Notes under the pieces: model-generated | Database searches by the model: none | Told to the model about the DNA's origin: nothing | Seen by the model: only the letters and a program-made list of their open reading frames with translations | Made by a program: the position numbers and the translations under genes | Virus record (IMG/VR): IMGVR_UViG_3300020183_000341 | Location: 1-29,636 of that record | Length of the DNA stretch: 29,636 bases | Reading direction: 5' to 3' (one strand) | Origin: a virus | Lineage: Duplodnaviria; Caudoviricetes | Shown here: positions 5,800 to 8,670 of the stretch, one piece after another | Layout of the letters: the number at the start of each line of letters is the position of its first letter | Position numbering within the stretch: position 1 is the first letter of the stretch

Positions 5800-5807
5800 A
5801 ATTAAAT

Positions 5808-5836
5808 ACTATACTTTCTTCGTTGTAGTTTTACAA
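5808..5836 (-). promoter_or_regulatory. Sigma70-type promoter for the helicase
   Basis: TTGTAA-17 nt-TATAGT, then only 8 nt to the ATG. Confidence 0.6.
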
Positions 5837-5852
5837 GACCTTTAATAATGTT

Positions 5853-6800
5853 TCAGTCTTGAACAAAACTATTTAGTTTACCAAACGTCTCACTCAACCA
5901 AACCATATAGTTTGGTAAATTATTCCACATCTTATCTTCAGTTATAAGTTTACTAAAAGTAAGCTTATCTATACGACGTATTGGTTTATTAATTATTTCT
6001 TCAATACGTAATTGCGTAAATGATTGTACTGAACTATCGCACAATTGCATCAAAGCATAGTTCCTTTCGAGAAGAATTTTATTGTCTAAAACTCTTTCGT
6101 AAATTTTATATTTGCTTTTGTGATTTTCACAGTAATTATACAGTTCTTGTAATGAAAACTGTTTATCATTAGATAAAAATGGAAACGCCTGAATAACACG
6201 TTTTAATCCTATGCCATTTAAACCTGGTATATTATCACTCTCGTCACCTTCCATTATTCTGTAATAAATAAAATTATTACATGTAATACCATATTCATCT
6301 AATATTTCTTTACAACCAAAAATCTTTTTCTTTACAGGACTCCAAATTTTTATCTTATCACTTGCCAACTGTAAAAAGTCTTTGTCTGTAGACATGATAG
6401 TTACATTACTATCTTTGAATGTTTCTCTAGCGAGATAAGCAATAGTATCGTCAGCTTCAATTTGATCTATTGCCATCAATGTAATAGGTAACGTATCAAG
6501 ATAATTTACCGTACGTATCAATTCTTTTTTAAAATTTTGACTTGCAACTGCCGTGTCACTTAAATCTTCGTAAGTTCTATTTAAACGTATATTTGTACGT
6601 CTGCCATTTTTATAATCAGGATATATTTTACGGCGTTTTTGAGAACCACCATTACCATCAAACACAACAATAACTCTGGTTGGTTGTAATAATTTTACAG
6701 CATAGCCTACACTTTTAAGAAAACCAGCAATACCACCAGTATGAATGCCGTCATCGTTCATGCTAGGTACGGCCATGAAACACCGAATATAAGTGTTCAC
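5853..6800 (-). CDS. 5'-3' exonuclease / flap endonuclease (PolI N-terminal, T4 RNase H-like), main C-terminal part
   Basis: VVFDG, RRKIYPDYKNGR, EADDTI, STDKDFLQL, GDESDNIPGLNGIG; begins at GTG-AAC-ACT, in the middle of the usual DGxN motif. Confidence 0.92.
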   Translation of the reverse strand: MNTYIRCFMAVPSMNDDGIHTGGIAGFLKSVGYAVKLLQPTRVIVVFDGNGGSQKRRKIYPDYKNGRRTNIRLNRTYEDLSDTAVASQNFKKELIRTVNYLDTLPITLMAIDQIEADDTIAYLARETFKDSNVTIMSTDKDFLQLASDKIKIWSPVKKKIFGCKEILDEYGITCNNFIYYRIMEGDESDNIPGLNGIGLKRVIQAFPFLSNDKQFSLQELYNYCENHKSKYKIYERVLDNKILLERNYALMQLCDSSVQSFTQLRIEEIINKPIRRIDKLTFSKLITEDKMWNNLPNYMVWLSETFGKLNSFVQD

Positions 6801-6928
6801 TACAATCCGTCAACCAAAAGGACATCACTATTAAGTGATTTTTTAAGTCCTCCGGTGACGGAATCTCTTTCTATGTTTTGAAATAAAGAAAATAACTTCT
6901 TTATTTCTTTTTTGTCAAAGTTGTTCAT
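6800..6928 (-). CDS. 5'-3' exonuclease N-terminal segment, 42 aa (missed by the ORF track)
   Basis: ATG at 6928 overlaps the upstream TGA (ATGA); MNNFDKKEIKKLFSLFQNIERDSVTGGLKKSLNSDVLLVDGL* ends in the first-strand motif VLLVDGL; its TAG (6802-6800) overlaps the next GTG (6800-6798). Confidence 0.85.
   Translation of the reverse strand: MNNFDKKEIKKLFSLFQNIERDSVTGGLKKSLNSDVLLVDGL
6806..6862 (-). other. Long GC-rich mRNA stem-loop ending one codon before the premature TAG
   Basis: TCCGTCA-CCGGAGGAC pairs with GTCCTTTTGG-T-TGACGGA (16 pairs, 2 of them G-U, 2 single bulges), enclosing an inner hairpin ATCACT-TAAT-AGTGAT; paired by eye. Confidence 0.75.
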
Positions 6929-7397
6929 TTAATAATTGCTTCTTCTGGCATATCTTCTTCAGGAACTATATAAACATCTATGGTTGTTTTATGTTCAATA
7001 TCTCTTGCTTTTTTTAATCTATTAAGACCATCTGATACAGATAAACCATAAGACTTACTTTTAATTACCAAAAGTGGACATTTAGTATTTGCTTTCATCA
7101 TTCTTTTATTAGAATGTTCAGGATATTCTTCATTTTGTTTATTCCACCACTTTAATTCATGTTCTAATTTTTAAATAGGAAAATCTTTTTTAAAATATTT
7201 TTTCTCATTTTTTTCAGCAAAAGCTACAACTACAGGTACACTTCGTTTAACTCCATTATCATCTACCATGATGTTTTCTGACCCATAAAAATGATTTTTT
7301 CCTCATAAATTTTTAGATAATCTTCTTCTAACTATAACCTATTACGCAAATGATTCAAATGTTTATTAAATGTCTCATTAAGTAAATTGTTATTCAT
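6925..7397 (-). pseudogene. Decayed ParB/sulfiredoxin-like domain gene
   Basis: ATG 7397; in-frame TAG 7334-7332, frame change near 7295-7305, in-frame TAA 7173-7171; last segment RMMKANTKCPLLVI..SVSDGLNRLKKARDIEHKTTIDVYIV resembles the ParB-N 'P++V...DG.HR..A' pattern. Confidence 0.65.
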
Positions 7398-7489
7398 ATA
7401 TACATAAATATAAATAAAAAAAAGAATCCACATATCGATTCATCTTTTATAAATTTGATATAATCGTTCAGATCGATCTTCAAAAAGAA

Positions 7490-7517
7490 GTTTTTCCGCA
7501 TTGCAATGCGGAAAAAC
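7490..7517. terminator. Perfect 28-bp palindrome after uvsX/recA, probable terminator
   Basis: GTTTTTCCGCATTGCAATGCGGAAAAAC is its own reverse complement; followed on the minus strand by TTCTTTTT. Confidence 0.65.
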
Positions 7518-7536
7518 ATCCTATCAATGTGTTTTA

Positions 7537-8670
7537 CTATTCGTTACCAGCAGTTTCTTCGTTGGTATCAACAACAGCATCTTCAACAATTTGACTGTTT
7601 GGATTTTTGTATTTCATGATAACAGCGTCACAAATCTTCAAGTAAATTTCTTCACTTAATTCTTTGTCGGTCTGCATCACGCTTACAAAATCTTTGGATT
7701 GAAACTTCCAGTCTGATTCATCATTCTTCTTGTATGTGTAATAAGCTCCACCCTGTTTAATTAGACCTTGTTCTTTTAAAACTTTAATCCAACTACCATA
7801 ATCAGCAATACCGCTATCAAAATAGATATCGAAACTTGCTTGCCGTTGTGGTGGACCCATACGATTTTTTACAACAACAGCTTTACACTCATTGCCGATG
7901 ATTTCTTCACCCTTCTTGAGCTTACCTGTATTAGTCAAACGGACACGTACACTACAGTGATATGCTAGTGCCTTACCACCGCTTACTACATACTTGTCAC
8001 CAAACGCCATGGCATTTAGATTTTGACGTAGTTGGTTAGTAAATACAGTAAGAACTTTCTGACGGCCAATCATAGTGGTAATCTTACGCATTGCTTTACT
8101 AATAATAATACTCTTACCAGTTGCGTAACCATCTTTACCATGATCACTTTCTAGTTCTACCTTTGTTGATGCTGCTGCTACAGAGTCAACGATGATTGTT
8201 AGAATACGATCTTTGTTGCTCTTGCGAACAATTGCAATCATCTTCTCCATCTGAGCAAAAATATCTTCAACTGTTTCACATTGAACATATAGTAACTTAG
8301 ATAGATCTACACCTAAACTCTTCCAAAACTCAGGAGCAGCTGCATTTTCAGTGTCAATTACTACTGCAACTCCACCTTTTCGTTGAGTATCAGCTACAAC
8401 GTGTGCGGATACTAGACTTTTACCAGTACCTTCCAAACCGTTAAATTCGACCATTTTACCAACAGGCAAACCACCGTGAGGACGATTACTAATAGCTAAA
8501 TCTAGTATTGATGAACCAGTACTAATCCAATCACTAATTTCTGCAGGATTTTCTTGTTCGTCTAAGAAATAAGCAATCTTACCACCATCTTTATTAGCTT
8601 TGTTTAACTCTTCAGCTAATAGTTCAATAAGTTCATCTCTTTGATTTTCTTTACTTTGTTTTTTTGCCAT
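7537..8670 (-). CDS. uvsX: RecA/UvsX recombinase
   Basis: ISTGSSILD, GGLPVGK, Walker A GLEGTGKS, IDTENA, Walker B IVDSVAA, TNQLR, SGGKALAYH, KNRMGPP. Confidence 0.93.
   Translation of the reverse strand: MAKKQSKENQRDELIELLAEELNKANKDGGKIAYFLDEQENPAEISDWISTGSSILDLAISNRPHGGLPVGKMVEFNGLEGTGKSLVSAHVVADTQRKGGVAVVIDTENAAAPEFWKSLGVDLSKLLYVQCETVEDIFAQMEKMIAIVRKSNKDRILTIIVDSVAAASTKVELESDHGKDGYATGKSIIISKAMRKITTMIGRQKVLTVFTNQLRQNLNAMAFGDKYVVSGGKALAYHCSVRVRLTNTGKLKKGEEIIGNECKAVVVKNRMGPPQRQASFDIYFDSGIADYGSWIKVLKEQGLIKQGGAYYTYKKNDESDWKFQSKDFVSVMQTDKELSEEIYLKICDAVIMKYKNPNSQIVEDAVVDTNEETAGNE

Follow-up and report, generated by a model that had tools for sequence, protein, structure and literature searches.

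Can a phage still make a working 5′–3′ exonuclease from a gene that is interrupted by a stop codon just behind one of its metal ligands? The question is raised by a 29 636-nt viral record (IMGVR_UViG_3300020183_000341), which we call the window and which comprises the whole stretch of DNA analysed. This lake phage has tail-tube, baseplate, ssb, recA, exonuclease, DnaB and nrdAB genes, and on its minus strand the codons GAC, GGA (6808–6806) and TTG are separated by five extra bases, TAGTG, from the AAC (6797–6795) with which the rest of the exonuclease gene begins (Table 1). The initial annotation had described this break inside the DGL-N motif, and we confirm it. Sequence comparison, as set out below, indicates that the gap is real, conserved and mobile, and that ribosomes probably decode it by hopping over a very short distance.

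An interrupted exonuclease gene and its relatives

Once the five bases are removed, the two parts of the gene (42 + 314 codons) yield the 356 aa previously counted, which is also the length of the closest intact homologues, P0002 and P0003; these are 88% identical to the C-part of the window. The protein belongs to the PF02739/PF01367 exonucleases, with the 5_3_exonuc_N domain and its conserved carboxylates present. Asp40, correctly taken for a metal ligand at the outset, aligns without gaps to Asp26 of Mycobacterium smegmatis Pol1 and to Asp18 of Taq (the alignment was made on P0002), and Asp26 is the named counterpart of a site-M1 metal ligand and one of eight metal-binding carboxylates that are essential in the Mycobacterium tuberculosis enzyme (PMC7102940). 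The stop is doubled in the frame of ORF1 (TAG TGA), so that plain readthrough cannot work in the window, and no tRNA genes were found there.

Table 1. Features of the exonuclease region in the window
Feature	Position	Strand	Basis
ORF1: cassette-borne first 42 codons of the 5′–3′ exonuclease, ending Asp40-Gly41-Leu42	6803..6928	-	nt identity
Asp40 codon (GAC), counterpart of a site-1 metal ligand	6809..6811	-	alignment; PMC7102940; PMC3783174
TTG, putative take-off codon	6803..6805	-	position common to all gap types
Coding gap TAGTG, 5 nt; stop at 6802-6800; right border of the cassette	6798..6802	-	sequence, contigs of runs
GTG, putative landing triplet	6800-6798	-	inside the TAGTG gap
Exonuclease C-part, 314 codons from Asn, open frame, conserved carboxylates	5853..6797	-	PF02739, 97.8 bits (cut-off 34.3)
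Compound hairpin, 57 nt; its lowest stem closes on the codons for Asp and Gly, immediately ahead of Leu42	6806..6862	-	folding, covariation
End of the one-time endonuclease gene (its last bases), which overlaps the region where ORF1 starts	6929..6937	-	blastn match to L002 begins here
Unrelated, multiply broken ORF replacing most of the endonuclease gene	6925..7397	-	phrog_17560, E 4e-6
Endonuclease 5′ remnant (free-standing gene), frameshifted and truncated	7411..7536	-	76.7% nt identity over 180 columns to L002
recA, left flank	7537..8670	-	adjoins the exonuclease gene in most intact relatives

Contigs from seven of the eight sequencing runs bridge the gap site with the five bases and no indel, none lacks them, and the eighth run covers only ∼ 20 bases on one side of the site; an assembly error was therefore rejected. 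The sequence check that the initial annotation had called for was thus made on contigs, not raw reads, so that rare variants could be missed. Three of the eight runs are possible sources of the window DNA, and one run comes from a 2021 freshwater study. In runs X1, X16, X18 and X20 (window 6652–6902), a related phage with one extra gap base co-occurs.

The same break, for which a search of relatives had been suggested, was found at this codon boundary in 90 IMG/VR loci, compared to ∼ 2600 stretches with the intact pattern, i.e. in roughly 3% of the exonuclease loci. The best 80 of 170 loci from a protein-based search comprised 52 intact genes, 27 genes with a 5-nt gap (one of them identical to the window) and one with a 6-nt gap. 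Patterns requiring a stop codon hit exonuclease homologues at 75 of 78 and 15 of 63 IMG/VR loci and at 37 of 74 metagenome loci; the gaps measured 5, 6, 7 and once (L277) 8 nt. The C-parts of the gap loci share from 32% to 100% protein identity with that of the window. A search without the stop requirement, which covered 59 of the 64 database parts and allowed any insert of 1–15 nt after GAC-GGN-YTN, returned 70 homologues, all with a stop codon first (34 inserts of 5 nt, 30 of 6 nt and 6 of 7 nt); six-base inserts likewise began with a stop in 46 of 46 cases. The 6-nt pattern shifted one or two codons upstream gave no matches, and no gap longer than 8 nt occurred among the 90 homologues with patterns that allowed up to 33 nt. 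All patterns demanded NT(Y/F)IR downstream of the gap, so the conservation of these residues is circular and more distant families fall outside the sample. Pattern matches with no blastp match to the C-part were dropped (3 of 78, 48 of 63, 37 of 74, 2 of 48, 1 of 120 and 49 of 119); loci L160–L221 include recurring non-homologous matches, with 21- and 11-nt spans, to sequences other than this exonuclease. GTDB genomes produced 13 pattern matches and no exonuclease homologues. The three records examined as cultured relatives, Microcystis phage Mel-JY01, Flavobacterium phage immuto 3-5A and the uncultured LR756508, are all intact, a count outside which there were 1046 further matches. An alternative genetic code was rejected, given that all three stops occur and that 5- and 7-nt gaps change the frame.

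Judging from its sequence, the interrupted gene is under purifying selection with its C-part open. The C-part is open over at least 305 aa in all 62 gap genes with enough flank, ORF1 starts with Met in 69 of 71, and dN/dS is 0.03–0.12 in eight of the 11 pairs of gap genes, the other three pairs being saturated. All 54 of 54 gap genes retain Arg47 and seven carboxylates, whereas Arg222 (48/54) and Lys241 (50/54) are slightly rarer than in intact genes. There was a single exonuclease-family match per record in each of four gap-bearing records, one of which is 89% complete. The open C-parts, the low dN/dS values and the 90 gap loci led us to reject a recent knockout.

A mobile cassette and its endonuclease genes

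In most intact relatives, recA adjoins the exonuclease gene. Many gap loci encode a 300–340-aa NUMOD3 + PD-(D/E)XK-like protein between the two genes, and another clade of gap loci has a 200-aa HNH-NUMOD3 protein in this place. Endonuclease DNA was detected upstream of 32 of the 67 scorable gap genes (35 show none) and of none of the 126 intact genes, a contrast favoured by the fact that the endonuclease queries came from gap loci; 4 of 71 gap loci and 9 of 107 random intact loci were left out for short flank. The endonuclease of locus L002 matches MTES_1575 (E 2e-7) and NUMOD3 below the Pfam cut-offs, as well as PHROG HNH/homing endonucleases (E 3e-16 and 1e-11), and that of L098 matches phrog_655 (E 2e-53). 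In L187, a Mom-family gene (363–1088) was found, with an endonuclease remnant and a 6-nt gap downstream of it.

The endonuclease of the window lineage is of the NUMOD3 + PD-(D/E)XK-like type, not MobA. The window keeps ∼ 125 nt of its 5′ end, recognizable in a tblastn comparison with the L002 endonuclease (E 1e-7), and its last bases. The broken ORF that has taken its place shows no similarity to the L002 spacer, and its match to phrog_17560 lies in its 3′ part. TTA codons flank the first stop of this ORF (7337–7329, minus strand), probably by chance because more breaks follow. Just after recA, within the endonuclease remnant, there is a terminator-like hairpin (7517–7490, minus strand).

ORF1 of the window is 94–97% identical at the nucleotide level to that of loci L002, L016, L035, L043, L058 and L059, whose C-parts are only 63–85% identical to the window (in 150-nt bins), and 53–68% identical to the corresponding part of seven native-type intact genes. 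L016, L043 and L058 have intact sisters that are 88–100% identical to them in the C-part and 56% in ORF1. The 30 bases that precede the Asp codon are common to ten loci, which part ways at the third base behind the gap; from there on, the sequence matches the host background. The native N-terminus is preserved ahead of the endonuclease gene in one case of 32 (the first 35 codons in L106, 2411–2514, minus strand), which puts the left junction after Asn-Ser-Asp. On the tree of the C-parts (137 rows), the gap state requires 26 changes, at least 19 of them forced, as compared to 42.9 when shuffled; this was a quick tree with SH-aLRT support only, with duplicates and proteins under 280 aa left out.

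The mosaic identity, the shared border and L106 thus delineate a unit that consists of the endonuclease, the replacement N-terminus, the hairpin and the gap, with the gap as its right border. These sequence patterns indicate that the cassette is repeatedly inserted at one site and supplies a replacement N-terminus. The initial annotation had offered the scar of an excised mobile element as one option; this is ruled out by the endonuclease neighbours, the mosaic identity and the sharp right border, the gap marking instead the edge of a cassette that is still spreading with an endonuclease gene. Locus L051 (2870–2995), with a cassette-type N-terminus, a short spacer after recA and a decayed hairpin, looks like a healed cassette.

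We infer that the insert shields the gene from its endonuclease, by analogy with the protection described for MobA (10.1101/2022.08.31.505936). The insert would break the endonuclease target in the conserved DGxN codons, and a converted genome would accordingly be immune without any change in the protein. In the window, the endonuclease has decayed; the hop would remain.

Decoding of the gap

The hairpin in front of the gap has a folding energy of −26.3 kcal/mol (z −4.17, a stability that none of 200 shuffles reached; synonymous shuffles give z −6.2). It had been described as a 57-nt GC-rich structure: it is real and ends directly before TTG, but is only moderately GC-rich (24 of 57 bases, or 42% compared to 31% locally). 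A stem of at least five Watson–Crick pairs that closes on the Asp-Gly codons is found, with several loop lengths, in all 48 distinct gap sites, as opposed to none of 22 close and 13 of 109 random intact sites. Covarying pairs were looked for in 15 hand-picked sequences, the window's cluster and one neighbour, where 89% of the cells are paired and eight pairs show the two-sided changes that had been expected of relatives; the covariation score, inflated by the relatedness of these sequences, was reached by none of 500 shuffles and also exceeded slid controls. The wobble base of the Gly codon is paired in 44 of 47 cases, in six pair types.

The specificity of the hairpin for gap sites holds for this stem and not for hairpins as such, because 21 of the 22 close intact sites have an equally strong hairpin in a different register, which ends 5–9 nt before the Asp codon. 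The mean z is −6.8 for close intact sites versus −5.5 for gap sites, and z is below −3 in 27 of 109 random intact sites. Very strong hairpins of this other register (z −5 to −9), 60 nt before the DGL codons, were seen in the close intact relatives L003, L008, L036, L054, L070 and their kin. In L051, which is intact and has a cassette-type N-terminus, the hairpin is lost (z 0.0); as this locus shows gap loss with hairpin decay, some of the intact-site hairpins may be relics. On the assumption that 12 nt are hidden in the ribosome, the folding energy in the window is −15.5 at take-off, −17.6 at +5 and −28.2 at +12, so that the stem would be incomplete when the ribosome is at the stop; on the same assumption most of the gain falls past the landing point. 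The fold of the gap junction in the window is weak (−7.1 kcal/mol), and 54 gap genes gave no signal of a downstream barrier structure (mean z −0.04).

We grouped the 71 different gap sequences into 16 cassette clusters, which subdivide into 32 cluster-by-gap types. In 26 of these types, the last triplet of the gap matches the codon before the stop in at least two positions: positions 1–2 in 21 types and positions 2–3 in five, including the window, where GTG mismatches TTG at the first position. The six types that match at one position include 7-nt gaps ending in AAA or AAC. Loci L148, L158 and L150, all with 7-nt gaps, have full hairpins and landing triplets that do not match (AAC, AAA), and two of them have intact endonuclease genes. 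In 11 of 11 draws, 6-nt types with Leu at both ends stay within one codon family (CTN to CTN, TTG to TTA; p ∼ 3e-5 from codon usage, with TTA and TTG accounting for 63% of Leu codons), a value that rests on the doubtful assumption that 10 clusters are independent. Landing triplet and take-off codon have different third bases in 17 of 21, and within clusters the stop switches between TAA, TAG and TGA; thus, the stop and the tRNA match appear to be kept while the sequence drifts. All three stops and gaps of 5, 6 and 7 nt occur in the cluster of the window alone, which suggests a single, frame-independent mechanism for all of them. TTA is never a take-off codon, though it is the commonest Leu codon at this position in intact genes (33/107). 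As for the mini Shine–Dalgarno sequence that precedes the gene 60 landing codon by 5–7 nt, the window has GGA 5 nt before GTG, but this is the Gly codon, which is GGA in 5 of 16 cluster representatives. In a gap born by duplication of the Leu codon, the landing triplet would match by origin.

These patterns make it likely that Leu-tRNA leaves UUG, re-pairs at GUG and lets translation resume at Asn, giving the 356-residue enzyme. Such a +5 hop, the first of the options originally put forward, is the best-supported reading on what are purely comparative grounds. The ribosome would stall while its P site holds Leu-tRNA, its A site faces the stop and the bottom of the hairpin is still inside; zipping of the stem would then pull the mRNA out on the 5′ side and cause a short forward slide, and the tRNA would re-pair 5 nt downstream before decoding resumed at the Asn codon. 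The idea of a stem-zipping motor stems from the 5′ stem-loop of T4 gene 60 (PMC5009743; 10.1101/2024.12.09.627546), and we extend it, by inference, to the exonuclease gap. Against a hop stand the six of 32 types with a one-position landing match, the strong hairpins in intact sites and the absence of a T4-type take-off stem-loop. More tentatively, and at just under an even chance, we propose a minimal bypass motor, in which an upstream hairpin and a stop push the ribosome over a measured 5–8 bases; a codon match would help without being necessary, and the motor would do without an A-site stem-loop. Unrelated endonucleases (Vsr-like and HNH) would use it as a portable immunity patch in ∼ 3% of the family, and the 6-nt forms would be natural in-frame stop-hops.

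Gap lengths of 6 ± 1 nt could also be accommodated by ordinary recoding, the main rival reading (−1 frameshifting for 5 nt, readthrough for 6 nt and +1 frameshifting for 7 nt), each adding two tolerated residues after DGL, the second of which is usually Leu, Val or Ile. This would account more easily for the unmatched landings, and two 7-nt clusters contain CTC-TGA-C, which resembles the prfB +1 site. However, three mechanisms would have to alternate within one cassette cluster, the 8-nt gap of L277 adds three residues, the shifted P-site codons (ATT, ACT, CCT, TCT, TAT) pair poorly with Leu-tRNA, and the landing triplet matches the codon family, not merely the amino acid. The spacing from Asp to Arg is ungapped relative to Taq and mycobacterial Pol1, and there was no sense-codon insert in the 70 and 46 loci from the searches that did not call for a stop, so that two-residue additions are not seen in nature here. 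Besides, −1 shifting is reported to be weakened when a hairpin lies on the 5′ side (PMC5009743). Altogether, we regard ordinary recoding as unlikely. Termination at TAG followed by reinitiation at GTG would produce a two-chain nuclease from 42-aa and 315-aa pieces. The stop-start overlap pointed out in the initial annotation is indeed present in the window and in other TAGTG loci, and split phage enzymes beside endonucleases exist (Topo2L, NrdA; 10.1101/2022.08.31.505936). Nevertheless, this option is open to the 5-nt form only: GTG ends just 2 of the 32 gap types, the rest ending in non-start triplets, such as the TTA, CTT, GTC or AAC of the 6- and 7-nt gaps in sisters from the same cluster, and the first Met of the C-part in other gap genes is 7 to over 80 codons downstream, or absent. 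The split would fall one residue pair after the metal ligand, with none of the terminal tails added in known split enzymes, and we find reinitiation very improbable.

If, instead, the gene were knocked out or truncated, the phage would live on the host nuclease or make an N-truncated protein from a promoter created by the insert (TTGACG, 16 nt, TATATT). Gaps of 5–7 nt do give sigma-70-like spacers of 16–18 nt, the window site turns up in a consensus scan, and gap genes score better for −35 matches (4.73 versus 3.68 of 6), an excess attributable to the pairing of GAC in the stem. Yet a usable −10 hexamer is present in only 19 of 71 gap genes, compared to 22 of 28 close intact genes, the region contains four promoter-like sites versus 5.8 expected, and both the stop-first rule and the codon matching are left unexplained. 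With C-parts open in 62 of 62 genes, dN/dS of 0.03–0.12 and the ORF1 start codon in 69 of 71, we consider this explanation improbable. The sigma-70-like site of the window lies at 6813–6786 (minus strand), with a −35/−10 spacing of 16 nt that becomes 17 and 18 nt in the 6- and 7-nt forms, and the −10 element is poor in most clusters. The least probable of the explanations considered is removal of the five bases from the RNA, by trans-acting splicing, editing or polymerase skipping, with the hairpin as the recognition signal. A conserved stem beside a precise excision would fit an RNA-processing signal, but the gap ends share no sequence beyond the stop and the Leu-like triplet, positions 5800–7700 have no Rfam match at E values up to 1, and selection for an in-frame stop and for tRNA-matched triplets points to translation. 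A self-splicing intron or a known RNA family was rejected on account of the Rfam result and an insert of only 5 nt.

Comparison with known bypass systems

Only for very few genes has programmed bypassing been proved at the bench. If the +5 hop is true, a 5-nt hop with one hairpin would set the model of a ribosome pushed by zipping mRNA apart from the several other signals with which it is bound up in gene 60, and the 32 natural gap types are ready variants for frame, stop and landing match. Homing endonucleases would then have a third way, beside introns and inteins, to reside in conserved genes, and some 'truncated' exonucleases of 306–314 aa in the databases may be mis-called full enzymes. 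We found no report of a short-gap exonuclease cassette in the literature searched, in which subscription journals were thinly covered and supplements were outside the scope.

The exonuclease cassette would work like T4 MobA/gene 60 but is outside that family. The gene 60 bypass lies within a MobA homing-endonuclease element (Manning and Atkins, 10.1101/2022.08.31.505936), and both systems combine a free-standing endonuclease, a replacement N-terminus and a gap that starts with a stop at a metal-ligand motif. In both, insertion is repeated at one site, the endonuclease decays while the gap stays, and the type of endonuclease is exchangeable (VSR and GIY-YIG in the MobA systems, Vsr-like and HNH in ours). 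A 5′ stem-loop is also common to both, although here it closes at the base before the take-off codon and in T4 it is 9 nt away. The host genes are different, Topo2L (topoisomerase II large subunit) there and a flap/5′–3′ exonuclease here, and so are the gaps, which have 20–50 nt in the MobA family (50 nt in gene 60) and 5–8 nt in the exonuclease genes. Take-off is from Gly or Asp codons in the former and from Leu in the latter, where the tetraloop take-off (A-site) stem-loop within the gap is absent. First-position mismatches and unmatched landings occur here, in contrast to the MobA systems, and ∼ 40% of the IMG/VR gaps (30 of 70, from the search without stop requirement) are in frame.

Shorter gaps have precedents. 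According to a 2016 review, shorter counterparts of gene 60 have long been presumed and a natural in-frame stop hop was not known (PMC5009743). In the synthetic 'stop-hop' of Weiss et al. (1987), a paper whose title names +5 and +6 hops, a stop has matching codons on either side and 9 nt are decoded as one residue; that hop was low-level and unstimulated in constructs (PMC5009743), whereas the present one would be natural, conserved and accompanied by a hairpin. The gene for the terminase in Streptomyces phage Hau3 also has a short gap, of 10 nt (7 nt in a prophage), at a conserved junction; bypass of a UAA construct was demonstrated by mass spectrometry in Escherichia coli, and a 5′ stem-loop was proposed (PMC10732093). 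The natural trigger in Hau3 is a hungry UUA codon, proposed to be regulatory, as opposed to the stop codon here, and there is no endonuclease; the words 'homing' and 'exonuclease' do not occur in the available text of that report (PMC10732093). The byps of Magnusiomyces mitochondria are longer, at 27–55 nt, involve an unassigned sense codon and mitochondrial ribosomes, and in the accounts available have no endonuclease partner described, but they too are mobile inserts made harmless by bypassing, with imperfect matches between the site of take-off and that of landing (PMC5009743; 10.1101/2022.08.31.505936).
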